64,000 nt of DNA, from the NCBI RefSeq assembly GCF_029227855.1, contig NZ_CP074356.1, one strand, 5' to 3'. The position numbers and the translations under genes were made by a program. The DNA comes from Escherichia coli (GTDB taxonomy: Bacteria > Pseudomonadota > Gammaproteobacteria > Enterobacterales > Enterobacteriaceae). Under the pieces are notes generated by a model. It made no database searches, was not told where the DNA came from, and saw nothing but the letters and a program-made list of their open reading frames with translations. Below, piece by piece: positions 16,428 to 58,819 of this stretch. Each line of letters starts with the position of its first letter. The stretch's first letter is position 1.

Positions 16428-18873
<2,446 letters not shown>

Positions 18874-19030: not shown

Positions 19031-19064
19031 TTGAACTTCGTCACATCCCCACTGGGGACAACGC

Positions 19065-19337
19065 TTAGTTTACCGCGTCTTTCAGTGCTTTACCTGCACG
19101 GAAGCTCGGTACTTTAGCGGCAGCGATGGTGATCTCTTTACCGGTCTGCGGGTTGCGGCCAGTACGGGCAGCACGCTCTTTAACGGCAAAAGTACCAAAA
19201 CCTACCAGTGCTACATCATCCCCTTCTTTCAGAGATTCAGTTACGGAAGCAATAATAGCATCTAACGCACGGCCAGCCGCAGCTTTAGAGATATCAGCCC
19301 CTGCAGCAATCTTGTCGATCAATTGAGATTTATTCAC
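19065..19337 (-). CDS. hupB: DNA-binding protein HU-beta
   Basis: 90-aa product [50 protein letters not shown]... Confidence 0.95.
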
Positions 19338-19475
19338 TCTTCTCTTCCTCTTTATAATTTATATCGCACTTGAATCCTTCAAGGTACGAACGCGCAGCAG
19401 TTATATCAGGCCAGCCATCCCCTTACAACACCCCTTAATAAGGGCAAGCCCGATCCGCCATCTAACTTAGCGAGA

Positions 19476-19514
19476 CAAAAAAAGGCTGGCAAGCCCGAAT
19501 TAGCCTGCCAGCCC
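19476..19514 (-). terminator. lon rho-independent terminator
   Basis: Inverted repeat GGCTGGCA / TGCCAGCC flanked by an A7 run (a T-run on the minus strand), about 30 nt after the lon stop. Confidence 0.6.
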
Positions 19515-19545
19515 TGTTTTTATTAGTGCATTTTGCGCGAGGTCA

Positions 19546-21900
19546 CTATTTTGCAGTCACAACCTGCATGCCAGACGGTTCATTTTGCAGCGCCAGAGTC
19601 AGAACTTCCTCAATGCGCTTCACAGGATGAATGTCCAGATCGGCAATTACGTTGTCAGGAATCTCTTCCAGATCGCGTTTATTTTCGAACGGAATTAGCA
19701 CTGTTTTAATCCCGCCCCGATGCGCTGCCAGTAGTTTTTCTTTCAAACCACCGATCGGCAGTACCTGACCACGCAGAGTGATCTCACCGGTCATTGCCAC
19801 ATCGGCACGAACCGGGTTACCGGTCAGGCAAGAAACCAGCGCGGTGCACATAGCAATACCGGCACTCGGACCATCTTTCGGCGTCGCACCTTCCGGTACG
19901 TGGACGTGGATGTCGCGTTTTTCGTAAAAATCAGGGTTGATCCCCAGTTTTTCCGCACGCGCACGAACCACCGTTAACGCTGCCTGAATGGACTCCTGCA
20001 TCACTTCGCCAAGCGATCCGGTATAGGTCAGTTTGCCTTTACCCGGAACGCACGCGGTTTCAATGGTCAGCAAGTCACCGCCCACTTCCGTCCACGCCAG
20101 ACCAGTTACCTGACCGACACGGTTTTCGTTATCAGCGCGTCCATAGTCGAAACGCTGAACACCGAGGTAGTCATGCAGGTTATCACCGTTAACTTCGATA
20201 TGTTTTAATGACTTATCGAGCAGTAACTGCTTAACCGCTTTGCGACACAGTTTGGAGATTTCACGCTCCAGACCACGCACGCCCGCCTCACGGGTGTAAT
20301 AACGAATAATGCCGATAATGGCGCTATCGTCGACGGTCAGCTCACCTTTTTTCAGTGCATTACGTTCAATCTGCTTCGGCAACAGGTGACGTTTGGCGAT
20401 GTTCAGTTTTTCATCTTCGGTATAACCGGAGAGGCGAATCACTTCCATACGATCCAGCAGCGGTGCCGGAATGTTCATGGAGTTCGACGTCGCGACAAAC
20501 ATCACGTCGCTGAGATCGTAATCCACTTCCAGGTAGTGGTCGCTGAACGCTACGTTCTGCTCTGGATCCAGCACTTCAAGCAGTGCGGAGGCCGGATCGC
20601 CACGCATGTCAGAAGACATTTTGTCGATCTCATCGAGCAGGAACAGCGGGTTTTTCACGCCCACTTTCGCCATTTTCTGGATCAGTTTACCCGGCATAGA
20701 ACCGATGTAAGTACGGCGGTGACCACGGATTTCCGCTTCATCACGCACGCCGCCCAGCGCCATACGGACATATTTACGCCCGGTGGCTTTGGCAATGGAC
20801 TGACCAAGAGAGGTTTTACCTACCCCTGGCGGCCCTACCAGGCAGAGGATCGGTCCCTTGATTTTGTTGACACGGCTTTGAACCGCAAGATACTCAAGGA
20901 TGCGATCTTTCACGCGCTCCAGACCATAATGGTCGGTATCAAGGATTTCCTGCGCCTGACGCAGGTCTTTTTTGACCTTGCTGCGCGCATTCCACGGCAC
21001 CTGTACCATCCAGTCGATATAACCACGCACTACGGTCGCTTCTGCCGACATCGGAGACATCATTTTCAGCTTCTGCAACTCTGCTTCCGCTTTCTCTTTT
21101 GCCTCTTTCGGCATTTTCGCCGCGTCAATTTTGCGCTTCAGGGCTTCGTTTTCGTCCGGCGCGTCGTCCATTTCACCGAGTTCTTTCTGAATAGCTTTCA
21201 TTTGCTCGTTCAGATAGTACTCACGCTGGGATTTCTCCATCTGCTTTTTAACGCGGTTGCGAATGCGTTTCTCAACCTGCAGCAGATCGATTTCCGATTC
21301 CATCATTGCCATCAGATATTCCAGACGTTCGTTAACGTCGGACATCTCCAGAACGGACTGTTTGTCAGCCAGTTTCAGCGGCATATGTGCAGCAATGGTA
21401 TCCGCCAGACGCGCCGGGTCGTCGATGCTATTCAGCGACGTCAGCACTTCTGGTGGGATTTTTTTGTTCAGCTTGATGTAGCCTTCGAACTGGCTGATTG
21501 CAGTACGCACCAGCACTTCCTGTTCCCGCTCATCAATGGTCGGCGACTCCAGATACTCCGCCTTCGCAGAAAAGTGTTCGCCATTGTCAGAGAGCGCAGA
21601 AATACGCGCGCGCTGTAACCCCTCGACCAGCACTTTGACGGTGCCGTCTGGCAGTTTCAGCATCTGCAATATAGAGGCCACGGTCCCGACGGTGAAAAGA
21701 TCGTTTACACCCGGCTCATCCGTTGAAGCTTCTTTCTGCGCGACCAGCATAATTTTTTTATCATGGTCCATCGCCGCTTCCAGACAACGGATAGATTTTT
21801 CCCGCCCGACAAATAAGGGGATGACCATGTGCGGATAAACCACCACATCGCGCAGCGGCAATACGGGGATTTCAATGCGTTCAGAACGCTCAGGATTCAT
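19546..21900 (-). CDS. lon: ATP-dependent Lon protease
   Basis: 784-aa product from internal ATG ([25 protein letters not shown]...); Walker [10 protein letters not shown] and catalytic serine region PKDGPSAG. Confidence 0.95.
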
Positions 21901-21983
21901 AGAGCTCTCTCTTAGTTTAATTTCCGCCAGGTAATCAGATGACACGACTGTGCTTCACGCCATCTATTAACATGTACGTCAGT

Positions 21984-22012
21984 ATATGGGGATGTTTCCC
22001 CCACATTCAACG
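21984..22012 (-). promoter_or_regulatory. Sigma-32 heat-shock promoter of lon (candidate)
   Basis: Minus strand reads TTGAAT-N13-CCCCATAT, resembling the sigma-32 -35 CTTGAA / -10 CCCCATNT consensus, about 85 nt upstream of the lon start. Confidence 0.55.
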
Positions 22013-22087
22013 CCGAGAATAGAGGAAAAATTAAAGGGGAGATAAAATCCCCCCTTTTTGGTTAACTAATTGTATGGGAATGGTTAA

Positions 22088-23362
22088 TTATTCACCAGAT
22101 GCCTGTTGCGCTTCCGGCTTGCCATAAATCAGCAACGGCTTGCTTTGACCATCAATTACCGATTCGTCGATAACCACTTTTTCGACGTCTTCCATGGACG
22201 GCAGATCGTACATGGTATCGAGCAGTGCGGCTTCTACGATGGAACGCAGGCCACGGGCACCGGTTTTACGCGCCATCGCTTTCTTAGCGATAGCATCCAG
22301 CGCCTCGTCACGGAATTCCAGATCCACGCCTTCCAAATTAAACAGCGCCTGATACTGCTTGGTCAGGGCGTTTTTCGGCTCTTTGAGGATCTGAATCAGA
22401 GCTTCTTCGCTCAGTTCATTCAACGTTGCGACAACCGGCAGACGACCAATGAACTCAGGGATCAGACCAAACTTGATCAGATCTTCCGGTTCAACCTGCG
22501 CCAGCAGCTCGCCTTCGCTTGCTTTGTCGGACTTCGCTTTTACCGTCGCGCCAAAACCAATGCCGGAGCCGGTTTCTACACGATGGGAAATGACTTTATC
22601 CAGACCAGCGAACGCACCACCACAAATAAACAGGATCTTAGAGGTATCTACCTGCAAGAATTCCTGCTGCGGATGTTTACGCCCACCTTGCGGTGGAACA
22701 GCAGCTACCGTACCTTCGATCAGTTTCAACAGAGCCTGCTGTACGCCTTCACCGGAAACGTCTCGGGTAATGGACGGGTTGTCTGACTTACGAGAAATCT
22801 TGTCGATTTCATCGATGTAGACAATCCCGCGCTGCGCTTTCTGTACGTCGTAATCGCACTTCTGCAACAGCTTCTGAATGATGTTTTCAACGTCTTCGCC
22901 CACATAACCGGCTTCGGTCAGCGTGGTTGCGTCGGCCATGGTGAACGGGACGTCCAGCAGGCGCGCCAGCGTTTCGGCCAGCAGCGTTTTACCGGAACCG
23001 GTCGGACCGATCAGCAGAATGTTACTTTTGCCCAACTCGACGCCATTGCTGGTATCGCCGTTACGCAGACGTTTGTAGTGGTTGTATACCGCGACCGCCA
23101 GCACTTTTTTCGCCTGTTCCTGACCGATAACGTAATCGTCCAGGTGGATACGAATTTCATGCGGCGTCGGTAGCGCACTGCGTTCACGATGCGGTGCAAC
23201 TTCTTTAATCTCTTCGCGAATGATGTCGTTACATAAATCAACACATTCGTCGCAGATATACACGGATGGACCGGCAATCAGCTTGCGCACTTCATGCTGG
23301 CTTTTGCCGCAAAAAGAGCAATACAGCAATTTGCCTGAGCCATCTTTGCGTTTATCTGTCAT
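22088..23362 (-). CDS. clpX: ATP-dependent Clp protease ATP-binding subunit ClpX
   Basis: 424-aa ORF with N-terminal zinc-binding CSFCG...CDEC motif and Walker A GPTGSGKT. Confidence 0.95.
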
Positions 23363-23487
23363 GGGTCAAAACCTCTTCTTTGTTCTTTGTGCCGCACACG
23401 ACGACGCAAATGCCATTCTCAGGCGCAAGCCGCTTACAGCGTTGTGCCGCCCTGGATAAGTATAGCGGCACAGTTGCGCCTCTGGCA

Positions 23488-24111
23488 TCAATTACGATGG
23501 GTCAGAATCGAATCGACCAGACCGTATTCCACCGCTTCAGGGGCGGAAAGGAAGCGATCGCGCTCGGTATCACGTTCAATCTGTTCTAATGATTGACCCG
23601 TATGAAGCGCCATAAGTTCATTCATGCGTCCTTTAACTTTCAGAATTTCACGGGCATGAATTTCGATATCGGTCGCCTGGCCCTGGTAGCCGCCCAACGG
23701 CTGGTGAATCATCACGCGCGAATTCGGCAGGCAGAAACGTTTACCTTTTGCCCCTGCAGTCAGCAAGAAAGCGCCCATCGAAGCCGCCTGGCCCATACAG
23801 ATGGTGCTGACATCAGGCTTGATAAACTGCATGGTGTCATAGATAGACATCCCGGCAGTAATCACCCCGCCTGGGGAGTTGATGTACAGATAGATATCTT
23901 TTTCTGGGTTTTCTGCTTCCAGGAACAGCATCTGCGCCACAATCAGGTTAGCCATGTGGTCTTCAACCTGGCCAGTCAGAAAAATGACGCGTTCCTTAAG
24001 TAGACGAGAATAGATATCAAAAGAGCGCTCACCACGTGAGGTCTGTTCAATGACCATCGGCACCAGCGCCATATGGGGTGCAAAGTTATCTCGTTCGCCG
24101 CTGTATGACAT
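23488..24111 (-). CDS. clpP: ATP-dependent Clp protease proteolytic subunit ClpP
   Basis: 207-aa ORF, translation recognised as ClpP. Confidence 0.95.
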
Positions 24112-24189
24112 TTCCGTCTCCTGGATAAAATTGAAAAAACCTGCTGTACCGATTGTAACCTTATGGACGGATTATCAGCTAGTCCCTGT

Positions 24190-24220
24190 GTTATGGGTAC
24201 GGCATCACCATATTTCAAGC
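24190..24220 (-). promoter_or_regulatory. Sigma-32 heat-shock promoter of clpPX (candidate)
   Basis: Minus strand reads CTTGAAA-N15-CCCATAAC upstream of clpP; fits the sigma-32 consensus loosely. Confidence 0.4.
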
Positions 24221-24356
24221 ATAACAATCTTTTGTTGTTACGCTAACACCGAAAGAGGCTTTTCGCACGGTTCCATGCAAAATTCATGACAAAAAAAAGC
24301 CCACCACCTGGCGGTGACGGGCCTTTGTGCGAATTTAGCGCGTTATGCTGCGTAAA

Positions 24357-25664
<1,308 letters not shown>

Positions 25665-25998
25665 TCAAAAAATCACAGTGCTCGGTCAACTCTTACCCCG
25701 CAAGCACAGGTTGTTGGCTTCGCGGAACCGGGATGTTCTTATAATCAATCACATTCCCTGTTACCAGAATCATCCCGAAAGCATTCAAATAGGACGCGGC
25801 ATTATAGCGGCATCACTTTTATGAGTCGAGAACGGTTATTGCGCGCTGTCGCGTATTTTTTCACAATTCCCGGGCAATTTTCGTCTGAATGCTGGGCAAA
25901 AAGCGCAAAATCCAGACAAAACAAAACGGCCCGCAGGCCGTTTTTCATAAAATCTTTAGCAACATACTGGAAAAGCGCCGACAGTTGCAAATGCGTTT

Positions 25999-26316
25999 TT
26001 ACGCGATGCTTCCTGCTCCACGACAGGGAGGAGAGGCAAAGACGGTGTCCTGCAACCCTTCCCACTCCTTAATAGTGTAAGTATGCAGAGCCAGCGCATG
26101 AACGGTAGTAGAGAGTTCCTCCGCTAAAGTACTGTAAATCATTCGATGACGATTCAGAAAACGTTCACCCGTAAAACGATCGCTGACCAGCACAACTTTA
26201 AAATGGCTTTCAGAGCCGGCTGGGACATTGTGACGATAGCTTTCATCCACTACTTCGAGGAATACGGGTTGGAACGCCGCCCTTAATTTTTCTTCTATCC
26301 GCTCACGTATCATCAT
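25999..26316 (-). CDS. bolA: Stress/morphology transcriptional regulator BolA
   Basis: 105-aa product [32 protein letters not shown]...; start at internal ATG. Confidence 0.9.
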
Positions 26317-26620
26317 GAAATATCTCCTCCGACAACGCTGAGATGTCATCCATCCCTTTAAATACTAGCCGCTTTTACCGTTTCCATTGCAGCTTAACAA
26401 CAAATATTTAGGTTTCGTCCTGGTTTTTCTGTCAAGCGTATGAAGTTTACTGATTTAAAGATTGAAACACAGGCCTCGCATCAGCGTTTCTTTTACCAGG
26501 GGCGATTATTTCGTCAACATGATGAATTTACATGCCTTACCCACTTCCCCTCGCCGTTGGCAATGTTATGATGGCGGGAATTTTTACCAAACACGCTTAA
26601 GAGTCTCTGAGAGCCCGAAC

Positions 26621-27199
26621 ATGTTCAAAAAAATCCTCTTCCCGTTAGTTGCTCTGTTTATGCTTGCAGGATGCGCAAAACCGCCAACAACTATTGAAGT
26701 TTCACCGGCGATGACACTGCCACAGCAGGATCCAAGCCTGATGGGCGTCACCGTAAGCATTAATGGTGCCGATCAGCGTACCGATCAGGCGCTGGCAAAA
26801 GTCACCCGCGATAATCAAATCGTTACCCTGACCGCCTCCCGCGATCTGCGTTTCCTGCTGCAAGAAGTGCTGGAAAAACAGATGACCGCGCGTGGTTACA
26901 TGGTCGGTCCGAATGGCCCGGTTAATCTGCAAATCATCGTTAGCCAACTGTATGCTGATGTGTCCCAGGGCAACGTGCGCTATAACATCGCGACCAAAGC
27001 GGATATCGCCATCATCGCTACCGCGCAGAATGGCAACAAAATGACCAAGAACTATCGTGCCAGCTACAACGTTGAAGGTGCGTTCCAGGCCTCCAACAAA
27101 AATATCGCCGATGCGGTTAACAGTGTGCTGACCGATACCATCGCTGATATGTCTCAGGACACCAGCATCCACGAATTCATCAAGCAGAACGCGCGTTAA
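26621..27199 (+). CDS. yajG: Lipoprotein YajG
   Basis: 192-aa product MFKKILFPLVALFMLAGCAKPP... (signal peptide plus lipobox LAGC); start at internal ATG 26621. Confidence 0.88.
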   Translation: MFKKILFPLVALFMLAGCAKPPTTIEVSPAMTLPQQDPSLMGVTVSINGADQRTDQALAKVTRDNQIVTLTASRDLRFLLQEVLEKQMTARGYMVGPNGPVNLQIIVSQLYADVSQGNVRYNIATKADIAIIATAQNGNKMTKNYRASYNVEGAFQASNKNIADAVNSVLTDTIADMSQDTSIHEFIKQNAR

Positions 27200-27242
27200 T
27201 TTCTGCCCTCTGGCCCGGTGCAAGCCGGGCCTGTAGACGCCC

Positions 27243-28718
27243 ATGTCCAGTCAATATTTACGTATTTTTCAACAGCCACGTTCAGCCATATTGCTGATCC
27301 TGGGTTTTGCTTCCGGGCTACCGCTCGCCCTGACGTCCGGCACCTTACAGGCCTGGATGACGGTCGAGAATATCGATCTCAAAACCATTGGTTTCTTCTC
27401 TCTGGTAGGCCAGGCTTACGTTTTTAAATTCCTCTGGTCACCGCTGATGGACCGCTACACGCCCCCATTTTTTGGGCGGCGGCGCGGTTGGCTGCTCGCC
27501 ACGCAAATCATGTTATTAGTCGCCATTGCGGCGATGGGTTTTCTCGAACCCGGCACCCAACTCCGCTGGATGGCGGCACTGGCAGTGGTGATCGCTTTTT
27601 GCTCTGCCTCCCAGGATATTGTCTTCGATGCGTGGAAAACCGATGTGCTCCCGGCAGAAGAACGTGGTGCGGGCGCGGCAATCAGCGTGCTGGGTTACCG
27701 TTTAGGGATGCTGGTTTCCGGCGGCTTAGCCCTATGGCTGGCAGATAAATGGCTGGGCTGGCAGGGCATGTACTGGTTGATGGCGGCGCTGTTGATCCCT
27801 TGTATTATCGCGACGTTACTTGCACCAGAACCCACCGACACCATTCCTGTGCCCAAAACGCTGGAACAAGCGGTTGTTGCACCTCTGCGAGATTTCTTTG
27901 GTCGCAATAATGCCTGGCTTATTTTGCTTCTTATCGTGCTGTATAAGCTGGGTGACGCATTCGCCATGAGCCTGACGACCACGTTTTTGATTCGCGGCGT
28001 CGGGTTTGATGCGGGTGAAGTAGGCGTGGTTAACAAAACGCTGGGCTTACTGGCGACCATTGTGGGCGCATTGTACGGTGGGATTTTGATGCAGCGCCTG
28101 TCGCTGTTCCGGGCGCTGCTGATTTTCGGCATTTTACAAGGTGCGTCTAACGCTGGTTACTGGCTGCTGTCGATCACTGATAAGCATCTCTACAGCATGG
28201 GCGCAGCCGTCTTTTTCGAAAACCTCTGTGGCGGGATGGGTACATCAGCCTTTGTCGCGCTGTTAATGACGCTGTGTAATAAGTCATTTTCCGCTACTCA
28301 ATTTGCCCTGCTCTCAGCGCTTTCTGCTGTAGGGCGAGTTTATGTCGGCCCCGTGGCGGGTTGGTTTGTTGAAGCACACGGCTGGTCGACATTCTATCTG
28401 TTCTCCGTCGCCGCTGCCGTACCAGGGCTTATTTTGCTGCTGATTTGTCGCCAGACGCTTGAATATACACGAGTAAATGATAACTTTATCTCCCGTACCG
28501 AATATCCGGCAGGTTATGCCTTTGCCATGTGGACACTGGCGGCGGGCGTCAGCCTGTTGGCCGTGTGGTTACTGCTGTTGACGATGGACGCGCTGGATTT
28601 GACGCACTTCTCTTTCCTGCCTGCTCTGCTGGAAGTCGGGGTTTTAGTCGCCCTTTCTGGCGTCGTGCTTGGTGGTTTACTGGATTATCTGGCGCTACGA
28701 AAAACGCATCTGACGTAA
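27243..28718 (+). CDS. ampG: Muropeptide permease AmpG (MFS)
   Basis: 491-aa polytopic membrane ORF directly downstream of yajG. Confidence 0.92.
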   Translation: MSSQYLRIFQQPRSAILLILGFASGLPLALTSGTLQAWMTVENIDLKTIGFFSLVGQAYVFKFLWSPLMDRYTPPFFGRRRGWLLATQIMLLVAIAAMGFLEPGTQLRWMAALAVVIAFCSASQDIVFDAWKTDVLPAEERGAGAAISVLGYRLGMLVSGGLALWLADKWLGWQGMYWLMAALLIPCIIATLLAPEPTDTIPVPKTLEQAVVAPLRDFFGRNNAWLILLLIVLYKLGDAFAMSLTTTFLIRGVGFDAGEVGVVNKTLGLLATIVGALYGGILMQRLSLFRALLIFGILQGASNAGYWLLSITDKHLYSMGAAVFFENLCGGMGTSAFVALLMTLCNKSFSATQFALLSALSAVGRVYVGPVAGWFVEAHGWSTFYLFSVAAAVPGLILLLICRQTLEYTRVNDNFISRTEYPAGYAFAMWTLAAGVSLLAVWLLLLTMDALDLTHFSFLPALLEVGVLVALSGVVLGGLLDYLALRKTHLT

Positions 28719-29174
28719 TCTGTAAATATTATTTAGCCGTAGTAATCACTCGCCGTAATTATTACGGCTAAATAAACATCAGCATCGCTTATTAATATTT
28801 GTTCTTTTGTGCGGCTTAGCGTCTGGAAATTATTGACGCCATTTATGAATTCTATTTTTCTTACACGATTCAGCTAATGAGTCTTTATTTTCTCACTACC
28901 CAGTTGTCACCTTAATGATAATTATTTGTTAAATAATTGTTTTATTTCGCATTGGTTATACCAATTGCCCGCCCAGACTCCTTCTGCACTCCCCTTTTGT
29001 TATAACGCCCTTTTGCAACAGCTTCTTAAAATCAACCTGATATGTTTTGCAACATATGTGACCTGGAAGCCAAATCCAAGTAACAGGAATTTAATCATGT
29101 TTACAGTAATGTAACCTTCCCGTAAAATGCCCACACACTTTAAACGCCACCAGATCCCGTGGAATTGAGGTCGT

Positions 29175-30125
<951 letters not shown>

Positions 30126-30134
30126 AGGGGTTGA

Positions 30135-33071
<2,937 letters not shown>

Positions 33072-33082
33072 GAGCGGCGGTT

Positions 33083-45995: not shown

Positions 45996-46950
45996 ATCCT
46001 TTCCAGTCTAACGTGACAGGTTCGCCGTCACGAATAAAACAAAGCCCTTCGATATCGGCGGTCATTTGCCCGATACAGGTAAACGGTACGCCCAGATGTC
46101 CGAGAGCCACATCCAGCGCGCCACGGTTCAGTTCCGGCACCGTGAAACACAACTCGTAATCTTCACCGCCAGAGAGCGCCCAGCGCAGCGCCTGTTCCGG
46201 TTCAACATGGCGAGAAAGCGCATCAGAAAACGGCAGCAATGCCAGGTCAATACGTGCGCCGCAGTCGCTGGCTTTCACGATATGCCCGAGATCGGAAATC
46301 AGACCGTCAGAGAGATCGATAGCTGAATTTGCCAGATCGCGCAGTGCCTGTCCCTGTAAAATACGCGGAGATGGACGGAGATGACGTTTGATCAAGTAGT
46401 CCGCATCTTTAACATCGGCAACCTGCAAACGGTTTTGCAAAATCGCCAGCCCGGCGGCGCTATCGCCCGGTGTACCGGTCACATAGATCCAGTCACCCGG
46501 TTTCGCCCCAGCGCGCGTTAAGGCTCGTCCCATCGGAACAAAGCCGTGGATACCCAGCGTCATTGATAATGGCCCACGCGTGGTATCGCCGCCAATGAGT
46601 TGCATATCGTAATAATTGAGAAGATCAAACAAACTGTCGCTGAAGGACTCAAGCCACGCTTCGTCGACGTCCGGTAAGGTTAATGCCAGCGTCAGCCAGG
46701 CTGGATCGGCCCCCATCGCTGCCAGATCGCTTAGGTTCACCGCCAGTGCTTTATACGCCAGATCAGCAGGATCGATATCAGGGAGGAAGTGGTTGCCCGC
46801 CACCAGCGTATCAGTGCTGATCGCCAGGGTCTGTTTCTCGGGGATATTGAGAAGTGCGCAATCGTCGCCAATGCCCAGTTCGACATCAAGACGAGAACTT
46901 CTTACACGGTCAAAATAACGGGCAATCAGGGAGAACTCGCCACATGCCAT
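45973..46950 (-). CDS. thiL: Thiamine-monophosphate kinase
   Basis: 325-aa ORF, translation recognised as ThiL. Confidence 0.93.
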
Positions 46951-47027
46951 ACGTTATGCCTCAGCAGGTAAAAAAGAAAAGGCCGGCGATCGCGGAACGG
47001 TCTTCCGTGAATCTACCGGCCTGGATA

Positions 47028-47447
47028 TCACTTTTTGTTAGGGCGAATCACAGGTGCTGCTTTATCGAGTACGCCGTTGACGAACTTATGGCTGTCTTCT
47101 GCGCCGAACGATTTCGCCAGTTCGATCGCTTCGTTAATGGCCACTTTGTATGGCACATCGCTACGTTTAGACAGCTCATACAGCGCAATGCGCAGTACTG
47201 CTTTTTCTACCTGGCCCAGTTCTTCCAGCAGGCGGGACAGGTATGGCTTCATCAGTCCGTCGAGGTATGCGGTGTTAGTCGCCACCCCGGCCAGCAGCTC
47301 ACGGAAGTACAGGACGTCAACGTCTTTTACATCCTGTTCAGCCAGGAACTGGTATTCAACATCAGCGATGTCGTTCTGGGACAACTGCCAGGAGTAGAGC
47401 GCCTGGACGGCACACTCACGAGCGCGGCGACGAGCAGCAGGTTTCAC
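47028..47447 (-). CDS. nusB: Transcription antitermination factor NusB
   Basis: 139-aa product [35 protein letters not shown]... Confidence 0.95.
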
Positions 47448-47466
47448 GGATTTCCCCTTACTAATT

Positions 47467-47937
47467 TCAGGCCTTGATGGCTTTCAATACATTAATCATT
47501 TCAAGCGCGGTCAGTGCAGCTTCTGCACCTTTGTTGCCAGCTTTGGTGCCAGCACGTTCGATCGCTTGTTCAATGCTTTCAGTGGTCAGAACCCCAAAAG
47601 CAACCGGAATTTCGCTGTCCTGGGCAACATGCGCCAGGCCGTTGCTTGCACCACCAGCGACATATTCAAAGTGGGCAGTGCCACCACGAATAACCGTACC
47701 CAGCGCAATCACCGCGTCGTATTTACCGGTTTTAGCCAGTGCACCCGCCGCCAGCGGCAGCTCATAGGCACCAGGCACCCAAACAACGGTAATGTTTTCA
47801 TCTTTTACCTGACCGATACGTTTCAGTGCGTCAATTGCACCTTCCAGCAGGCTGTCATTGATAAAGTTGTTGAAACGCGCGATGGTGATGGCGACGCGAG
47901 CGTCCGGGGTAGCAACGTTAGCTTCAATAATGTTCAT
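47467..47937 (-). CDS. ribE: 6,7-dimethyl-8-ribityllumazine synthase
   Basis: 156-aa product [38 protein letters not shown]...; start at internal ATG. Confidence 0.95.
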
Positions 47938-48025
47938 TTTCTTCCTTCGGGTTCGAGTATGGCCCCGCAGGGGGGCGGATTTTAGCATAATATTTCGTGC
48001 GCTGCTTCCCTTTCGAGCCGGGAGA

Positions 48026-49129
48026 TCATGCACCCACTAAATGCAGGCAAACATCCGGGCCTACATGACGTATCTCTTTGAATTTAAATTGGGGGGCGTC
48101 AGCTAATTTCTCAAGCCCTGGCAGCGTGCATAATCCACGGGCGTCGCTGCCTAATAGTTTAGGTGCGATATAGACAATCAGCTCATCGACTAAACCCGCC
48201 TGCAGCAATGCGCCAGCGAGCGTTGGCCCCGCTTCCACCCAGATGCTGTTAATCTGCTGTTTACCCAGTTGCATCATTAGTACAACCAGATCCAGATGAC
48301 CTTTATGCTCTGGAATCAGCAAGGTACGTACCGTTTCCGGCCACTCACGAGAATCTTCCTGCGTACGCGCGAACCAGGTTTCGCCGGGCTGCTGCACAAT
48401 GCGATGTTCCGGCGTCACGCGATTTTGGCTATCAATCACAATACGTATCGGCTGACGGAGATTTTGTTGCGGATAGAGCGCCTGAGTTTGTTCATCCAGT
48501 TCAGACCAACGCACTGTTAAGGCTGGATCATCCGCCAGCACCGTGGCGCTGCTGGTTAAAATGGCATGACTTTGTGCGCGCAGTCGTTGTACGTCGCGCC
48601 GCGCCTGAGGCGAAGTGATCCACTGGCTTTCGCCGCTCGCCATCGCCGTGCGACCATCAAGCGATGCGCCAAGTTTTAATTGAATATAAGGAAAGCCGGT
48701 GCGCATCCGCTTGAGAAAGCCTTTATTCAATTGCTCGGCTTCACTCATCATCAGCCCGTGGCTGACGTCAATGCCAGCCTGTTGCAGACGATATAGCCCT
48801 CGCCCAGCTACCTGCGGGTTAGGATCTTGCATCGAGGCAACCACGCGCGCCACACCTGCGGCAATTAATGCATCACAGCAAGGCGGCGTACGGCCGTGAT
48901 GGCTGCAAGGTTCGAGTGTCACATACGCAGTCGCACCTTTGGCTTTATCTCCAGCCATACGCAACGCATGTACTTCGGCGTGTGGTTCACCAGCACGGTG
49001 ATGGTAACCTTCACCGACAATTTCGCCATCTTTGACAATGACGCACCCGACATTCGGGTTAGGATGCGTGGTAAAACGTCCTCGTTGCGCCAGCTTTAGC
49101 GCCCGCGCCATGTAATACTCGTCCTGCAC
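48026..49129 (-). CDS. ribD: Bifunctional riboflavin biosynthesis deaminase/reductase RibD
   Basis: 367-aa ORF with CMP/dCMP deaminase zinc motif (HAEVHAL ... [15 protein letters not shown]). Confidence 0.95.
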
Positions 49130-49132
49130 GGC

Positions 49133-49618
<486 letters not shown>

Positions 49619-49905
49619 TTACCCTGAACTGACGATACAACAAAGGCGCAACGCTTTTGAGATAAAGGATCGATGCTTTCGCTGCTTTTACCCTCTACCA
49701 TTAGGCTAATTGCGACGAGAAAGGGACGACCTATGAATACTAACGTTTTTCGACTGCTCCTGCTGGGAAGCCTGTTCAGCCTTAGCGCCTGTGTGCAGCA
49801 AAGCGAAGTGCGACAGATGAAACACAGCGTCAGCACGCTGAACCAGGAGATGACGCAACTCATTGACATCCTCCACGCCCTGAAGGACGTGGATCCCTGC
49901 TACGT

Positions 49906-51114
49906 TCAGGCTGTCGCCTGAATCATTTCGGTGGGTTCCTGCTTCAACGGGCGGCCTGACTGCACCATCTCTCCACAGGCAAGAACGGCGTGCCCCGCCG
50001 CTAAAATGTTACGAGCGCCATTTACATCGGCGTTCGCTGTATATCCACATACCTGGCATCTGAATTGACTTTGTGACAGGCGATTTTCTTTCGCTGTATG
50101 ACCACAGCACGCGCAACGCTGACTTGTGTACGCTGGCGGAACAGCAAGCACCTGACCGCCACTCCAGAGCTGCTTGTACTCAAGCTGGCGGCGCATTTCA
50201 TACCAGCCCTGATCCAGTATCGAACGGTTTAAACCTGATTTTGCCCGGACATTGCGCCCCGGCTGGCTGACCGTACCCGCTGCTGACTTTGACATGTTAC
50301 TGACCTTCAAATCCTCAATGACTATCATTGCGTGGTTTTTGCTGACGGTCGTTGTGACTTTATGAAGGTAGTCCCTGCGGATATTTGCGATACAGGAATG
50401 CAGTCGCTGTATTTTGCGTTTCTGCTTCTGCCAGTTGTTGCTGAATTTGACCTTGCGGCTTAACTGTCGCTGAAGTCTCGCCAGCTTCTTCTGGTTTTTC
50501 TGAAAACTGTTTACAGGCTCAAAGACTGTGCCATCTGACAGCGTGGCGAGTTTAGCCACGCCAGCATCCAGCCCGACCATTGATGCTGAAGGGTGAACCG
50601 GAGTTGATACTTCACTTTCTGTCTGAATACTGATGTACCACTTACCGCAGGACTGGCAGACCGTGACATTTTTCACAACACCCGTGACCTGACGGCTATT
50701 CCGGTAGCGCATCCAGCCAAGTTTCGGCAGAAAAATACGGCTGTTTTCCTGATCGAGCTTAACGCCCTGCGGGTAGCGGAATGCATCATTCTGTCCCCGC
50801 TTTTTGAATCGGGGAAAAGCAGCCCGCTTCCGGAAGAAGTTTTTGTAAACCCGCTCAAGGTCTTTCAGTGACTGTTGCAATGGCTGTGAGGGCGAATCTT
50901 TAAGCCATTGCGTTTCAGTGGCGTTTTTCCACTCAACCAGCCAGGAAGCCATTTTCCCGTAAGGGATGTATTTATTACCGGCCTCATGATTCTCATTCTG
51001 AAGCGCCAGAGCACGATTGAAAACGAAACGACATGCGCCTGCGAAGCGCCTCATTTCACGCTCCTGTTGACCACCGGGTCTTAACTGGAATTTAAATGCC
51101 TGTAGTCGTTTCAC
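49906..51114 (-). CDS. tnpB: TnpB (OrfB) of IS605-family element; RuvC-like RNA-guided nuclease family
   Basis: 402-aa intact ORF, N-terminus [17 protein letters not shown]...; C-terminal zinc-finger CxxC...CxxC (CACCGH...CQVCGY); resembles K-12 IS609 InsQ as I recall it. Confidence 0.88.
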
Positions 51115-51121
51115 AGGCCAA

Positions 51122-51600
51122 ATGATACTTTGGTCTGTGAAAAAAGAAACCGATATCCGGCGTGGAAGGCATTGTGTTTTCCTGATGCATGTTCACCTGG
51201 TCTTTGTCCCAAATACCGACGCCAGATTTTTGACCATGACGCGACAGAAAAACCACGCACTTACTTTTCAGATGTATGTGCTGATTTTGAAGCTGAACTG
51301 GTTGAAATGGATGGCGAACCAGATCACGTCCATTTGTTAATTAACTATCCTCCCAAACTGGCGATATCCAGTCTGGTAAACAGCCTCAAAGGCGTATCGG
51401 GTAGGTGACTGCGACGAGATCGACCAGATATTGCAGTCAGGTATTACTACAAAGGCGTTTTGTGGAGTCCTGGCTATTTTGCCAGTAGCTGCGGAGGTGC
51501 GCCAATATCCGTCATCCGCCAATACATTGAACAACAGCAAACACCTGGTCAGGTGGAAAACCGCGCCTTATATCCCCGCCCTGAAGGACGGGGTTTTACG
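51122..51600 (+). pseudogene. tnpA: IS200/IS605-family Y1 transposase TnpA, frameshifted
   Basis: HVHLVFVP in one frame continues as KYRRQIF...DHVHLLINYPPK...LKG in the -1 frame (A-run at about 51211); C-terminal ...WSPGYFASSCGGAPISVIRQYIEQQ lies in a third frame. Confidence 0.75.
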
Positions 51601-52316
51601 GCGCACCGGATAAAGAAACAGTCAAAATCACTCAGCAAAACAGGCTGAATGCAAAATCCAGCAGTGGGGTTTACCTTCTGCCTGGAGCGAAAACACCAGC
51701 AAGACTGGAAAGCCAGATCGGTACTTTACGTATGTCGCTGGTGAATATTACGCCTGATACAGATGGCACCACCCTGACGCTACGTATTCAGGGCGAGTCG
51801 AATGATCCCTTGCCCGCATTCAGCGGAACTGTTGAATATGGGCAAATTCAGGGAACAATAGACAACTTTCAGGAAATCAATGTGCAGAATCAATTGATTA
51901 ACGCCCCTGCCAGCGTCCTCGCCCCCAGCGATGTTGATATTCCGTTACAGTTAAAGGGTATTTCTGTGGATCAGTTAGGCTTTGTACGTATCCACGACAT
52001 TCAACCTGTTATGCAGTAAACGTTTCGCGGGGCGTTTTGTGCGTCCCGCAACATCTTTCCCCGTCATTTTGTTACTCTGCTTACATCACCCAGATTGATA
52101 GTAAAAGTTTGCAACAAGGGTGAAAGTCAGTACAATCCCCGCCCGAATGTGTGTAAACGTGAACGCAATCGATTACGTAAATGATAGAACTGTGAAACGA
52201 AACATATTTTTGTGAGCAATGATTTTTATAATAGGCTCCTCTGTATACGAAATATTTAGAAACGCAATTTGCGCCTTTTTCACTCCCGCAAGGGATTTTC
52301 AAACAGTGGCATACAT

Positions 52317-53201
52317 ATGAAAAAAACATTACTGGCAGCCGGTGCGGTACTGGCGCTCTCTTCGTCTTTTACTGTCAACGCAGCTGAAAACGACAAACCG
52401 CAGTATCTTTCCGACTGGTGGCACCAGAGCGTTAACGTTGTCGGAAGCTATCACACCCGTTTCGGACCGCAGATCCGCAACGATACCTACCTTGAGTACG
52501 AAGCATTCGCTAAAAAAGACTGGTTCGACTTCTATGGTTATGCGGATGCGCCGGTATTCTTCGGCGGTAACTCCGATGCAAAAGGTATCTGGAACCACGG
52601 TTCTCCGCTGTTTATGGAAATCGAACCACGTTTCTCCATCGACAAGCTGACCAATACTGACCTTAGCTTTGGTCCGTTCAAAGAGTGGTACTTCGCGAAC
52701 AACTACATTTACGACATGGGTCGTAATAAAGATGGTCGCCAGAGCACCTGGTACATGGGTCTGGGTACCGATATCGATACTGGCCTGCCGATGAGCCTGT
52801 CCATGAACGTCTATGCGAAATACCAGTGGCAGAACTATGGCGCAGCGAATGAAAACGAGTGGGACGGTTACCGTTTCAAAATTAAATACTTTGTGCCGAT
52901 TACCGATCTGTGGGGCGGTCAGCTGAGCTACATCGGCTTCACCAACTTCGACTGGGGTTCCGATTTAGGGGATGACAGCGGTAATGCAATAAACGGTATT
53001 AAGACCCGTACCAATAACTCCATCGCTTCCAGCCATATTCTGGCTCTGAACTACGATCACTGGCACTACTCTGTCGTAGCTCGTTACTGGCACGACGGTG
53101 GTCAGTGGAACGACGATGCAGAACTGAACTTCGGCAACGGCAACTTCAACGTTCGCTCTACCGGCTGGGGTGGTTACCTGGTAGTAGGTTACAACTTCTA
53201 A
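52317..53201 (+). CDS. tsx: Nucleoside-specific outer-membrane channel Tsx
   Basis: 294-aa product [38 protein letters not shown]... with signal peptide; start at internal ATG 52317. Confidence 0.95.
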
Positions 53202-53211
53202 TTGTGAGAAT

Positions 53212-53238
53212 GCCGGATTTCATATCCGGCATTTTTTA
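53212..53238 (+). terminator. tsx rho-independent terminator
   Basis: Hairpin GCCGGAT-TTCAT-ATCCGGC followed by ATTTTTTA, 10 nt after the tsx stop. Confidence 0.75.
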
Positions 53239-53586
53239 TCACTTCTTCTTGTTCATCATCGCTTTCAGGTCAGCGAATGGGTTGTACTTCGCTTCACCGA
53301 CATCTTTCTGCGCATCTTCCCCTGCGATAACGGTCGTACCATACTGATCTGCTTCGGTATATTTTGAATGCTCGTGATCGTGGCAATAAAGACACAATAA
53401 CTCCCAGTTACTGCCGTCTTCCGGGTTATTGGTATGGTCGTGATCAATGTGGTGAACGGTAAGTTCACGCAGGTTGGAATAAACAAACTCGCGAGAACAG
53501 CGACCGCAGACCCACGGATAGATTTTTAATGCTTTTTCGCGATAGCCGCTTTCTAAGCGCGCATAGTTTTTGGGGATGATAGCCAT
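53239..53586 (-). CDS. yajD: HNH-nuclease-family protein YajD
   Basis: 115-aa ORF with HNH-like Cys/His motifs (CGRC ... HHIDHDHTNN ... CLYCHDHEH). Confidence 0.9.
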   Translation of the reverse strand: MAIIPKNYARLESGYREKALKIYPWVCGRCSREFVYSNLRELTVHHIDHDHTNNPEDGSNWELLCLYCHDHEHSKYTEADQYGTTVIAGEDAQKDVGEAKYNPFADLKAMMNKKK

Positions 53587-53649
53587 GAAAAGTTACCTGG
53601 ATGAAATGTAGGGTTACGCGCAGTTTCCCAAGATGCGGAGATTTTCGCA

Positions 53650-54370
53650 ATCTCCATACATCAATAAATATCCTCCGGCATAGCCGGAGGTTTTTCAAAT
53701 GCGCCTATAAGGCTCTCTTACCAGCCGCGCCCTAACAGGCGCACACGATCTGACATTTGCATCCAACTTCGTTACTTACGGCCCGTAAACGGGCTGCCCG
53801 GATAGGGAATCGATAACTGCTCTCCCATTTTATCCTCTTCAAGCTGGTGCTTTATGTAATCCTGTATCTTCGCCGTGTTCTTACCCACTGTATCGACGTA
53901 GTACCCTCTGCACCAGAACTCCCTGTTCCTGTATTTGAATTTCAAATCACCAAACTGCTCGTAAAGCATCAGACTGCTTTTCCCTTTCAGATATCCCATA
54001 AACCCGGATACGCTCATTTTAGGCGGGATCTCCACAAGCATATGGATATGATCTGCACAGCATTCAGCTTCCAGAATCCGTACGCTTTTCCACTCACACA
54101 GCTTTCTCAAAATACTGCCTATTGCTCTACGCTTCTCTCTGTAGAACACCTGTCTTCGGTATTTTGGCGCAAAAACTATGTGATATTTACAGTTCCATCG
54201 GGTGTGCGCTAAGCTCTTTTCGTTCCCCATTGGGACCCCCTTTTGATTTCTTGTTTGACACTTGCAGTTGCCAGACCGCAAGGTGTTTTAACAAATCAAA
54301 AGGGGTTTTAATAACTGGCTCAAAGCTGAAAGCTTTCCGGAACCCCCTGCCTAGCTGGGGGTTTTCTGTG
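53650..54370. mobile_element. IS200-type insertion sequence (boundaries approximate)
   Basis: About 0.7 kb between yajD and secF carrying an IS200-type tnpA; upstream of tnpA are the hairpins typical of the IS200 left end (RBS-sequestering palindrome 54235..54300, GC-hairpin 54334..54356). Confidence 0.6.
53772..54230 (-). CDS. tnpA: IS200 transposase TnpA (HUH Y1 family)
   Basis: 152-aa product MGNEKSLAHTRWNCKYHIVFAPKYRRQVFYREKRRAIGSILRKL...DHIHMLVEIPPKMSVSGFMGYLKGKSS..., classic IS200 TnpA; start at internal ATG. Confidence 0.9.
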   Translation of the reverse strand: MGNEKSLAHTRWNCKYHIVFAPKYRRQVFYREKRRAIGSILRKLCEWKSVRILEAECCADHIHMLVEIPPKMSVSGFMGYLKGKSSLMLYEQFGDLKFKYRNREFWCRGYYVDTVGKNTAKIQDYIKHQLEEDKMGEQLSIPYPGSPFTGRK

Positions 54371-54424
54371 CACAAAAAAATCCCGATCTTCTGACCGGGA
54401 TTTTCAACATCAACGGGAACTTGA

Positions 54425-55396
54425 TTACGGCAGAATTGACGGCTGATCCGCCCCTTCTTTTTCCACTTTCTGCTGCAGCATGTGTTCGCGCTTCATACCC
54501 AGTTTCAGAGCCAGCGCCGATGCCACATAGATGGAAGATGCAGTACCGATGGAAACACCGATAAGCATGGTCAGCGAGAAGCCTTCCAGTACCGGACCAC
54601 CGAAGAGGTACAGCATCAGGATAACCATCAAGGTAGTACCGGATGTGATCAAGGTACGGTGCAGCGTCTGGGTCAAGGACACGTTAAAGATTTCGTAAGG
54701 CGTACCGCGACGGATCTTGCGGAAGTTTTCGCGAATACGGTCTGATACCACGATACTGTCGTTAAGCGAGTAACCGATAACCGACATCAACGATGCCACA
54801 ATGGTCAGGTCAATCTCGATATGGAATAACGACAAAATACCCAGCGTAATGATAACGTCGTGCGCCAGCGCAATAACAACCCCTGCCGCCAGTCGCCACT
54901 CAAAGCGGAAACCTACGTACACGAGGATAGATAGCAGCGCCGCCATCAACGCCATCGCACCGGTTTGCGCAAGGTCTGCCCCCACGCTCGGACCGACGAA
55001 CTCAATACGCTTCACTGCCGCATTCTGATTGGTGGATTCGTTAATCACCTTCAGAACCTGGCTGCCCAGCACCTGACCGCCGGTTTCGCCTTCAGCAGGC
55101 GGCATACGGACCATGATGTCGTGGCTGCTACCAAAGTTTTGCAGCATCGGCTCTTCAAAACCGGCTTTTTGCAATGCATCACGCATTACGTCAATTTCAG
55201 CCGGTTTTTCGAGCGTAATTTCGATAACCGTACCACCGGTGAAATCCAGCCCCCAGTTAAAGCCGCGCACGCCCATAATAACGATAGCGGCGATTAACAG
55301 CAGACCAGAGATGCCAAAAGCCCAGTAGTCCCAGCGCATAAAGTCATAGACTTTACGGCCGTGGTTTAGTTGTTCAACAGTATATTCCTGTGCCAC
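54425..55396 (-). CDS. secF: Protein translocase subunit SecF
   Basis: 323-aa product (M)[27 protein letters not shown]... from a GTG start (reverse complement of cac at 55394..55396); the track ORF extends upstream into secD. Confidence 0.92.
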
Positions 55397-55406
55397 ATCG
55401 CACTCC

Positions 55407-57254
55407 TCAGATTGACAGCTTCTTGACGCGCTTGCCGCCATATAGCAGGTTTACGATGGCACGCGTACCGACAATCGCGGTAAACATCGACGTCGCCACA
55501 CCGATACCGGTAGTAATCGCGAACCCTTTAATTGCCCCGGTACCCACTGCGTACAGGATGATAACTTTAATCAGCGTGGTGATGTTCGCATCGAAGATGG
55601 AACTGAATGCGCCACGATAACCTTCATCAATTGCCTGTTGAACAGTACGTCCGTTGCTCAACTCTTCTTTAATACGTTCGTTGATAAGTACGTTCGCATC
55701 GACCGCTACCGCAAGGGTTAAGACGATACCCGCGATACCTGGCATACTCAGCGTTGCGCCTGGCAACAGCGACATAATGCCGACAATCAAGATCAAGTTG
55801 GCAATCAGAGCACTGGTCGCAATCAGACCAAACTTCTTATAGAAGATGATCATGAACAGAATAGAAACCAGCAGACCGGCAAGGCAAGCCTCCAGCCCCT
55901 GCTCAATGTTCTGCATACCCAGGGTCGGGCCAATGGTACGTTCTTCAACAATCTGAATCGGCGCGATCAACGCACCGGCACGCAGCAAAAGTGAAAGCTG
56001 ACGGGCTTCGTTCGGGTTGTTAATACCGGTGATACGGAAGCTGTTACCCAGACGAGACTGGATGTTAGCGATGTTAATCACCTCTTCCTGTTTCACCAGA
56101 ACCGCACGACCGTTAGCATCTTTCTTGCCGCTGTCTTTGTACTCCACAAACAGGGTCGCCATCGGTTTGCCGATGTTGTCCTTGGTGAAGTTAGACATAA
56201 TGTTGCCACCTGCGCTATCGAGCGAGATGTTAACCTGCGGCTGGTTGTATTCGTCCTGGCTGGAAGTGGAGTCGGTGATATGGTCACCGGTCAGAATTAC
56301 GCGTTTGTACAGCACAACTGGCTGACCTTCGCGGGTCTGTTTCACTTCAGAGTCGCCAGGTACGCGACCGGATGCCGCTGCGGCCTGATCAACGTTAGTG
56401 TTTACCAGACGGAATTCCAGCGTTGCCGTCGCACCCAGAATCTCTTTCGCACGCGCGGTGTCCTGAATACCTGGCAGTTCAACAACGATACGGTCAGCAC
56501 CCTGACGCTGAACCACCGGCTCCGCCACACCAAGTTGGTTTACACGGTTACGCAGGATATTAATGTTCTGCTGCACCGCATATTCACGCGCTTCACTAAG
56601 GCGAGCATCGCTCATTACCGCACGCAGCTGGTTGCTGCCCTGGCTACTAATCACCAGGTCCGGATGACGCTTGCTCAAATACGCAATGGCTTCATCACGA
56701 GCTTTAGCATCGCGGAAAGTGATGCTCAGGCCGTAGTTGTTTTCTTTACGAACGGTGGTATACGGGATGCCCTTTTCGCGCAGGTCGCTGCGCAGGCTAT
56801 CGATATTTTGTTCCTGGAGTTTGCCAAGCGCGGTGTCCATATCCACTTCCATCAGGAAGTGAACGCCGCCACGCAGGTCAAGGCCGAGCTTCATCGGCTC
56901 AGCGTGAATAGCTGCCAGCCAGCGCGGCGTTGCCGGGGCAAGGTTAAGCGCCACGACGTATTTGTCACCCATAACGCCCATTAATGCTTCACGAGCGCGC
57001 AGCTGGGTGTCAGTGGAGTCGAAGCGCGCAAGAATAGCGCCCTCTTCCAGTGCCACAGACTTAGCAGTTATTTTTTCTTCTTGTAACGTTTTCTGGACCT
57101 GGATCAGCGTTTGCTCACTGGCGGCGACTCCGCGCGCACCAGTGATCTGAACAGCCGGATCCTCACCAAACAGGTTGGGAAGCGCATACAGCAGACCGAT
57201 GACAATCACCACGATCAGCATGACGTACTTCCACAAAGGATAACGGTTTAACAC
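55407..57254 (-). CDS. secD: Protein translocase subunit SecD
   Basis: 615-aa ORF with N-terminal TM, large periplasmic domain and C-terminal TM bundle. Confidence 0.95.
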
Positions 57255-57281
57255 GGCAATTCCCTTAGGGAAAAATTTTAA

Positions 57282-57614
57282 TTACAGCGCCTTCATGGTG
57301 CCTTTCGGCAGGACGGCAGCTACGAAGTCACGTTTAATAACTACTTCAGTGGTGTCATTCAGCGCGATAGCAATGTAGCCGTTTTCCGCTACTTTGGTTA
57401 CGCGACCAACCAGGCCACCGTTCGTCAGAACTTCATCACCTTTGGCAATGGAGTCCATCAGCTTTTTGTGTTCTTTGGTGCGCTTCTGCTGTGGACGCAG
57501 GATCATGAAATAGAAAATCAGACCGAATACCACCAGCATCAAAATCAAAGACATCGGGCTACCTTGCGCCGGTGCACCCGTTGCCGCTACCGCATCAGAA
57601 ATAAAAAAGCTCAT
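57282..57614 (-). CDS. yajC: Sec translocon accessory subunit YajC
   Basis: 110-aa product MSFFISDAVAATGAPAQGSPMSLILMLVVFGLIFYFMILRPQQKR...; start at internal ATG. Confidence 0.92.
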   Translation of the reverse strand: MSFFISDAVAATGAPAQGSPMSLILMLVVFGLIFYFMILRPQQKRTKEHKKLMDSIAKGDEVLTNGGLVGRVTKVAENGYIAIALNDTTEVVIKRDFVAAVLPKGTMKAL

Positions 57615-57636
57615 TAAATTTCCCTCATTATTAATA

Positions 57637-58779
<1,143 letters not shown>

Positions 58780-58819
58780 TCAGAAAAACAGTCCAACGTT
58801 TTAAACCAGCGCCGCGGAA

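Follow-up and report, generated by a model that had tools for sequence, protein, structure and literature searches.

Between secF and yajD, the window (the whole 64,000-nucleotide stretch of Escherichia coli DNA that was analysed) carries a copy of the insertion sequence IS200C. It is very probably a full-length element that was inserted directly behind the T-run of the secF terminator, its target, with tnpA oriented like the two neighbouring genes, and that is nearly silent. The comparative data suggest further, with about even confidence, that IS200C and the Yersinia element IS1541 home to intrinsic terminators, their transposase TnpA taking the host terminator as a pseudo right end. The type of element is already known, RefSeq annotates it at this locus, and no gene is disrupted. 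The coordinates of the features are shown in Table 1.

Table 1. Features of the IS200C copy and its surroundings (window coordinates)
Feature	Coordinates	Strand	Evidence
tnpA, 152-aa Y1 HUH transposase	53772..54230	-	Pfam Y1_Tnp PF01797, E 3.8e-38
IS200C element	53663..54373	-	empty-site alignments (K-12, M00057, 118UI), 9 other E. coli loci, IS1541
Left-end subterminal hairpin AACCCCC-TGCCTAGCT-GGGGGTT	54341..54363 (element nt 11-33)	-	Rfam first helix, RNA/DNA fold
Small hairpin AAAGCUUUCAGCUUU	54322..54336 (element nt 38-52)	-	Rfam second helix, fold
SD-burying 5'UTR stem-loop	54237..54305	-	fold, Rfam model, compensatory changes
Right-end subterminal hairpin CCTCCGGCTATGCCGGAGG	53672..53690 (element nt 684-702)	-	terminator-like scan of both strands, fold
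Putative art200 antisense RNA, about 90 nt	54220..54309	+	transfer of Salmonella start sites nt 153/154 (PMC4513863)
secF	54425..55396	-	Pfam SecD_SecF_C E 1.4e-70, RefSeq WP_000046637.1
yajD (HNH nuclease)	53239..53586	-	Pfam HNH E 1.1e-12, RefSeq
Predicted native secF intrinsic terminator ATCCCGGTCAGAAGATCGGGAT with T-run	54374..54401	-	IS-free strains, fold

The only long ORF with a family match in the 711-bp insert is tnpA; there is no tnpB. The product matches the Y1_Tnp profile over positions 2-121 of 121 and contains H61, H63 and Y125; the motif HIHML occupies residues 61-65 (codons 54036..54050). The first-pass annotation, which had read an IS200-type TnpA of 152 aa with this motif from the letters alone, is thus borne out. 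TnpA aligns with the solved Y1 transposases 2EC2, 2F4F, 2A6M (IS608 TnpA, E 3.9e-19) and 2XM3 (E 1.9e-16), with E values between 4e-23 and 2e-16, and its H61-I-H63 is in register with the HIH of 2EC2 and 2F4F. The entry 2XM3, listed under the name 'transposase' only, is presumably the TnpA of ISDra2. The Y125F mutant of the Salmonella IS200 transposase is catalytically dead, and the over-expressed Salmonella TnpA is active in E. coli (PMC4513863). RefSeq places WP_000526135.1, 'IS200/IS605-like element IS200C family transposase', at the exact position in strain JNEC-KY178, which matches the window at 100% over 1.6 kb. The name IS200C is adopted from this annotation on the strength of the identical protein, and the element is assigned by its gene content to the tnpA-only members of the IS200 group within the IS200/IS605 family.

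The limits of the element rest on the empty site, on nine further E. coli copies and on the end-to-end alignment with IS1541. The absence of the element from K-12, noted in the first-pass annotation, was confirmed for MG1655, in which nothing separates the secF terminator from the yajD side: the terminator ATCCCGGTCAGAAGATCGGGA and its run of eight T lead directly into GATGTATGGAG. In the window the same terminator with seven T is followed by GTGCACAG...GGAGGATATTTATT and only then by GATGTATGGAG. The terminator is joined straight to GATGTATGG in K-12, M00057 and 118UI alike, and no target duplication is present. An identical 711-bp unit with the same TnpA occurs at nine other E. coli loci with unrelated flanks, and the 710-bp IS1541 copies of Y. 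pestis align with the window element from end to end at 87%. The complete element accordingly reads GTGCACAG...ATATTTATT in the tnpA orientation. An IS200 copy between yajD and secF had been recognized earlier, with limits (53650..54370) that are 13 and 3 nt out. Each end is ambiguous by about one T, because empty sites have seven T (M00057) or eight (K-12 and 118UI) and strain 7/2 carries one T more beyond the right end. The element has no terminal inverted repeats (its ends are GTGCAC... and ...TTTATT); subterminal hairpins are found at both ends, on the left at nt 11-33 and on the right at nt 684-702. A blastn search for a second IS200 copy in the window found none. At the sequence level, apart from one private mismatch at the left end, the copy is indistinguishable from sister copies that look mobile.

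The minus strand shows the order secD, secF, insert and yajD, followed by tsx on the plus strand, and the start codon of yajD lies 76 nt from the right end of the element. The hairpin and T-run just outside the element constitute the predicted native intrinsic terminator of secF. Its stem-loop (54380..54401) starts 23 nt past the secF stop codon (54425) and runs, in minus-strand reading, into seven T (54374..54380); it folds as DNA at -10.3 kcal/mol (z = -4.8), and the generic terminator scan did not flag it, although it folds well. Apart from a run of seven or eight T, the terminator is the same in the IS-free K-12, M00057 and 118UI. The first-pass annotation had assigned this hairpin to secF as a terminator, and its boundary logic holds, because the hairpin is native and identical in three IS-free genomes; the structure with its T-run was found one nucleotide away from the place given for it (54381..54402). 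Its description as a shield that ends secF transcription ahead of the element is retained as far as the barrier is concerned, but is incomplete, as the comparative data suggest that the terminator is a target too.

These data come from 51 independent insertions, namely 41 of IS1541 in Y. pestis, nine of IS200C elsewhere in E. coli, and the window copy. A hairpin with a T-rich tail lies immediately to the left of the element at all nine other E. coli sites and at about 41 Y. pestis sites. A terminator-like criterion was passed by 92% of the 51 left flanks, compared with 0.4% of 3,000 random positions and 0% of the right flanks. The last 40 nt of the left flank fold at a mean of -17.0 kcal/mol (-6.8 at random positions), and the last 8 nt contain 6.1 T (2.0 at random positions). 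T stands at -1, -2 and -5 in 50-51 of the 51 sites, and TT closes the left flank in 50. Measured from the last paired G/C of the hairpin, the distance to the junction is 6-9 nt in 46 of the 51 sites; at the element's own right end it is 9 nt. On the far side of the element the T-run continues in 32 of the 51.

The right end of IS200C is laid out as GAAAAA, the hairpin CCTCCGGCTATGCCGGAGG and the 9-nt tail ATATTTATT (53663..53671). Its hairpin folds as DNA at -10.0 kcal/mol (z = -5.1) and is conserved in every full-length copy end. In the tandem copies of Y. pestis the right end of one copy is the left flank of the next; a right end can therefore serve as a target. At the other end, the left-end hairpin is preceded by the A-rich stretch AGAAAA, as would be expected of an IS608-type guide sequence that reads a T-rich cleavage site. 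The terminator is thus probably a recognized target and not only a safe harbour, to judge from these flanks. In the proposed mechanism, the A-tract, hairpin and T-tract of a terminator, exposed in single-stranded DNA at the replication fork, would copy the architecture of the right end, and TnpA would paste the element 6-9 nt after the terminator stem. By extension from the family, TnpA of IS200C would transpose one of the two strands in the form of a single-stranded circle ('peel and paste') and insert it into the lagging-strand template, 3' of a short target. The single-strand mechanism of this name is established for IS608 and ISDra2. The secF terminator would be both the landing site and the first barrier to read-through, because its layout matches the right end of the element.

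The plus strand of the window has a negative GC skew throughout and tnpA is on the minus strand, which indirectly places tnpA on the lagging-strand template. Such a polarity was reportedly found for the IS200/IS605 family by Ton-Hoang et al. in 2010. The flanks of 34 of the 41 IS1541 copies show a positive skew in the tnpA orientation (p = 2.5e-5), for which the co-orientation of genes is a possible confounder. An association with terminators is already published at the level of the family: terminator-like sequences are enriched upstream of IS200/IS605 elements, which was read as limiting expression and promoting persistence (10.1101/2025.07.22.666184). Text searches of the literature for a model with the terminator as target found only this statistical association.

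The 159-nt leader of tnpA folds at -55.4 kcal/mol (z = -3.78), and none of 200 shuffles was as stable. The Rfam model STnc490 (RF01405) matches 54240..54363 over its full length (model positions 1-124 of 124) with 141.3 bits, compared with a gathering score of 56 (E 3.2e-30); a non-canonical pair is flagged in the first helix. In the fold, the long palindrome consists of a 13-bp lower stem, with arms at 54237..54249 and 54293..54305, and an upper stem. The SD sequence AAGGGGGU (54235..54242, minus strand) overlaps the arm at 54237..54249, which is the 3' arm in the mRNA, and the ATG follows at 54228..54230. The long palindrome over the RBS that the first-pass annotation had described is thus a real SD-burying stem, according to the fold and the Rfam score, at coordinates shifted from the 54235..54300 given there; all features quoted in that annotation are present, none of them by chance, and several lie 1-13 nt off. 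Fourteen distinct leaders were aligned, from E. coli, Yersinia, Vibrio, Edwardsiella, Brenneria, Mailhella and others; compensatory changes (U-A to C-G, G-C to A-U) maintain the SD stem in copies from Vibrio, Mailhella and further taxa. Of the 32 pairs predicted across the leader alignment, 9 show double changes, six of these in the lower SD stem. The small hairpin, located approximately at the 5' end of the tnpA mRNA, is retained in the alignment with some one-sided and two-sided changes.

The arrangement is close to that of Salmonella enterica IS200 (707-710 bp; Lam and Roth; Beuzon et al. 1999; Ellis et al. 2015), the element on which the Rfam model STnc490 was built. It likewise has a single tnpA, encoding a 152-aa Y1 HUH transposase with Y125 from an ATG at nt 144, and an art200 region. 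On the published Salmonella map the palindrome that acts as a terminator occupies about nt 12-34, tnpA starts around nt 40 and the 5'UTR stem over the SD AAGGGGGU spans about nt 69-138 (PMC4513863); the start around nt 40 is reported in PMC12594629 as well. The corresponding positions in the window leader are nt 11-33 for the palindrome, nt 69-137 for the SD stem and nt 144 for the ATG. The window copy differs from Salmonella IS200 as the E. coli variant IS200C, with 711 bp and an A·A mismatch in the left palindrome. Sequestration of the SD by the 5'UTR stem was demonstrated experimentally in Salmonella IS200, whose palindrome at nt 12-34 terminates transcription in both directions and precedes the tnpA start (PMC4513863). 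By this analogy the GC hairpin of the window copy is the homologue of a transcription terminator and not a translational silencer, the function that it had been given at first; it is present, but at 54341..54363 and not at 54334..54356. By comparison with IS608, it is likely to be the left-end hairpin bound by TnpA as well.

This hairpin carries a private T-to-A change (sense strand, 54348). The resulting A·A mismatch, in place of an A-T pair, turns a perfect 10-bp stem into one of 7 + 2 bp and the DNA hairpin folds at -8.0 kcal/mol, compared with -11.7 for the consensus; the stem is perfect in 13 of the 14 leader variants, which represent other loci and taxa. The term 'intact', as applied earlier to the left-end hairpins, is appropriate for the SD stem but slightly too strong for the GC hairpin. 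In this model the mismatch could impair termination or recognition by TnpA.

An antisense RNA, art200, may be expressed from the window copy, as judged by analogy with Salmonella. A candidate promoter is formed by TTTACA (-35, 54186..54191) and TAAGCT (-10, 54210..54215), hexamers that are identical in the IS1541, Vibrio, Edwardsiella and Dickeya copies and that overlap codons. A generic promoter scan of 53200..54800 gave no matches, so that the promoters of tnpA and art200 lack confirmation by consensus; the -10 of art200 has been termed 'almost unrecognizable' (PMC4513863). The full-length STnc490 (art200) match starts at the left-end hairpin and is on the tnpA-sense strand, but the published art200 is antisense (PMC4513863); the match therefore marks the left end of IS200 and not the antisense gene, and it was rejected as evidence for an antisense RNA. 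Weak Rfam matches to Ysr202 (28 bits, gathering score 315), SorX and AaHKsRNA41 were rejected as well, being far below threshold and merely reflecting the resemblance of a hairpin plus T-run. Near-silence of the copy would result from the left-end hairpin, which would stop incoming transcription, and from a weak promoter, the 5'UTR stem burying the SD, and art200 together with Hfq, each of which would add to it. These silencing mechanisms are demonstrated for Salmonella IS200 and are conserved in sequence in the window copy.

Among related elements, IS1541 of Yersinia pestis and Y. pseudotuberculosis shares with IS200C the ends GTGC[A/C]CAG...ATATTTATT (87% identity, 710 bp) and a flank composed of a hairpin and a T-rich tail ending in TT; it differs in its host and in its far higher copy number, with at least 47 distinct copies in one genome, tandem dimers included. 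IS608 of H. pylori and ISDra2 of D. radiodurans have homologous TnpA proteins (E 4e-19 and 2e-16), subterminal hairpins at both ends and neither inverted repeats nor target duplication; they insert 3' of a short sequence similar to the cleavage site at the right end and prefer the lagging-strand template. Unlike IS200C, both also carry tnpB and recognize a bare tetra- or pentanucleotide (TTAC, TTGAT); in the flank of IS200C, by contrast, a hairpin stands in register with the junction. The two subterminal hairpins of IS200C differ from each other in sequence.

The insertion is present in 98 of 5,426 complete E. coli genomes, and RefSeq annotates the element there. A genome-wide count of copies, as proposed in the first-pass annotation, found IS200C-like sequence in 3,096 E. 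coli genomes, with a median of one place per genome and a maximum of 35. Listed counts for 30 of the filled-site genomes give three places in GMF054 and 17-30 in each of the other 29. The exact TnpA is encoded at no fewer than nine distinct loci, and the window copy shares 99.9-100% identity with copies at other loci, a sign of recent origin. As far as can be read from sequence identity, the many polymorphic sites with near-identical copies suggest that some lineages underwent transposition fairly recently. The literature puts IS200 at about 2.9 copies per E. coli genome (PMC4513863; PMC12594629) and regards it as essentially immobile in E. coli and Salmonella (PMC12594629). The near-identical multi-copy state of some E. 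coli genomes fits poorly with the label 'immobile'.

Strain 7/2 has at the same site a copy that is 100% identical, private hairpin mutation included. Between the two genomes 297 differences were counted over 47 kb, but only about seven in the 10 kb on the secF side, and divergence begins right at the right junction of the element. One insertion event and later homologous recombination, with a putative breakpoint at or in the element, would account best for this pattern. The junctions T7|IS|GATG in the window and T7|IS|T-GATG in 7/2 could be taken instead for two independent insertions in one terminator, which, as a preferred target, exists empty with both seven and eight T. This was rejected as highly improbable, because the private left-end T-to-A is common to both copies and absent from all others examined; the genomes are also nearly identical over the element and over the 10 kb that flank it towards secF. 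It is about equally improbable, if anything slightly more so, that the element was ancestral at this site and was lost by precise excision from most E. coli, K-12 included. Excision of IS200/IS605 elements is seamless, and an excised site therefore looks the same as one never filled. A loss on this scale is hard to reconcile with filled sites in only 1.8% of the genomes, with empty sites in diverse strains that carry both the 7-T and the 8-T allele, and with the 99.9-100% identity to copies at other loci.

Two further explanations are unlikely to a lesser degree and concern the meaning of the position and the state of the copy. The position behind a terminator might reflect survival, in whole or in part, with insertion at any T-rich site and persistence only of harmless, quiet copies; the preprint on the family ties terminator enrichment to limited transposase expression and persistence in just this way (10.1101/2025.07.22.666184). 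Survival would allow insertions anywhere in the spacer beyond a terminator, but the junction is held to 6-9 nt from the stem in 46 of the 51 sites and often falls within a longer T-run. The left flank, moreover, mimics the right end of the element, right ends are used as targets in tandem copies, and the right flanks are entirely without structure. On the side of survival, the classic insertions of IS200 and IS1541 (hisD984, inv) lie inside genes, so that terminators are not an obligatory target. With a similarly low probability, the window copy is a dead relic and a lineage marker only, its left-end mutation blocking recognition by TnpA. It has the sole broken pair among the 14 leader variants in a stem that is otherwise an invariant 10 bp, its left-end hairpin is 3.7 kcal/mol weaker, and two diverged backgrounds carry the mutated copy at one and the same site. 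Against this, its protein is identical to that encoded at the nine other E. coli loci examined, and the right end, the SD stem and nine of the ten pairs of the left stem are intact.

The locus itself is of little importance, but the presence or absence of the element can serve to mark some E. coli lineages. Comparison of the filled with the empty site defines the ends of IS200C with an uncertainty of one base, and the insertion is one data point in a strong pattern of terminator adjacency (92% of 51). Homing to intrinsic terminators, if true, would explain the position right behind the secF terminator, the harmlessness of these elements and the rise of tandem copies; with it, IS200C would have been mobile recently in some E. 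coli lineages, those with 17-35 near-identical copies. If the pattern is one of target recognition, it would explain how the family spreads with almost no damage.

The window was compared with strain 7/2, an E. coli genome that carries a fully identical IS200C at the same site, over the span 16651..64000. To the left of IS200C, in yajD, tsx and beyond, the two sequences differ at about 6 positions per kb; to the right, over the 10 kb from secF to malZ, there are only about 0.7 differences per kb. The change-over falls exactly at the right end of the element (53662/53663), which suggests from the sequence comparison that a homologous-recombination boundary lies at or inside the IS200C copy.

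Coordinates of the features discussed.
Feature	Position	Strand	Remark
Second IS200/IS605-family element	window about 49733..52019		unrelated to the IS200C copy
tnpB (InsQ, RNA-guided nuclease gene)	window 49906..51114	minus	intact
tnpA pseudogene	window 51122..51546	plus	frameshifted
Pentapeptide-repeat protein gene	window about 43731..45303		between yajO and pgpA; RefSeq annotation
Native hairpin GGAGATTGCGAAAATCTCC	window 53637..53655		between IS right end and yajD
RF01405 (STnc490) match	window 54240..54363	minus	tnpA-sense
IS1541 tandem dimer	L068 1984..3403		Yersinia pestis NCTC5923
IS1541 tandem dimer	L070 11928..13347		Yersinia pestis NCTC5923

The native hairpin between the element and yajD has a perfect 6-bp stem in the window through a SNP at 53639. 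This SNP sets the window apart from all four strains compared, namely strain 7/2 and the IS-free K-12, M00057 and 118UI, in which CCCC at the hairpin leaves a mismatch in the stem. The second IS200/IS605-family element cuts the lipoprotein gene yajI (SadB/YajI, DUF3251) into two fragments, and strain 7/2 has yajI split by a tnpB/tnpA element in the same arrangement. Only about 2 kb separate this element from the IS200C copy. According to the RefSeq annotation, the pentapeptide-repeat gene is intact in strain 7/2 and frameshifted in JNEC-KY178, a strain identical to the window over 1.6 kb.

The Rfam match to STnc490 includes the left-end terminator hairpin of IS200C. STnc490/art200 is defined in the literature as antisense to the tnpA 5'UTR (PMC4513863). 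Because the match lies on the sense strand and takes in the terminator hairpin, RF01405 apparently differs in strand or extent from the RNA described in print.

In Yersinia pestis NCTC5923 the relative IS1541 (87% identical end to end) forms head-to-tail tandem dimers: the left end of the second copy follows on the right end of the first, either directly or after one extra T (L084, L114). Such dimers are consistent with the right end serving as an insertion target.

Among the matches listed, JNEC-KY178 and GMF054 resemble the window most closely at this locus, and they differ greatly in IS200C load, with 24 matching places in the first and only three in the second; the allele at the locus is thus uncoupled from the genome-wide copy number. 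The exact 24-nt sequence of the left-end hairpin is present in very distant taxa (loci L003-L065), often at contig ends. These include Vibrio, Oxalobacter, Mailhella/Desulfovibrio, Saccharibacteria and Elusimicrobiaceae, as well as Bacillota and Peptococcaceae MAGs. Judged from these sequence matches, the distribution points to a wide horizontal spread of the highly conserved IS200 left end.
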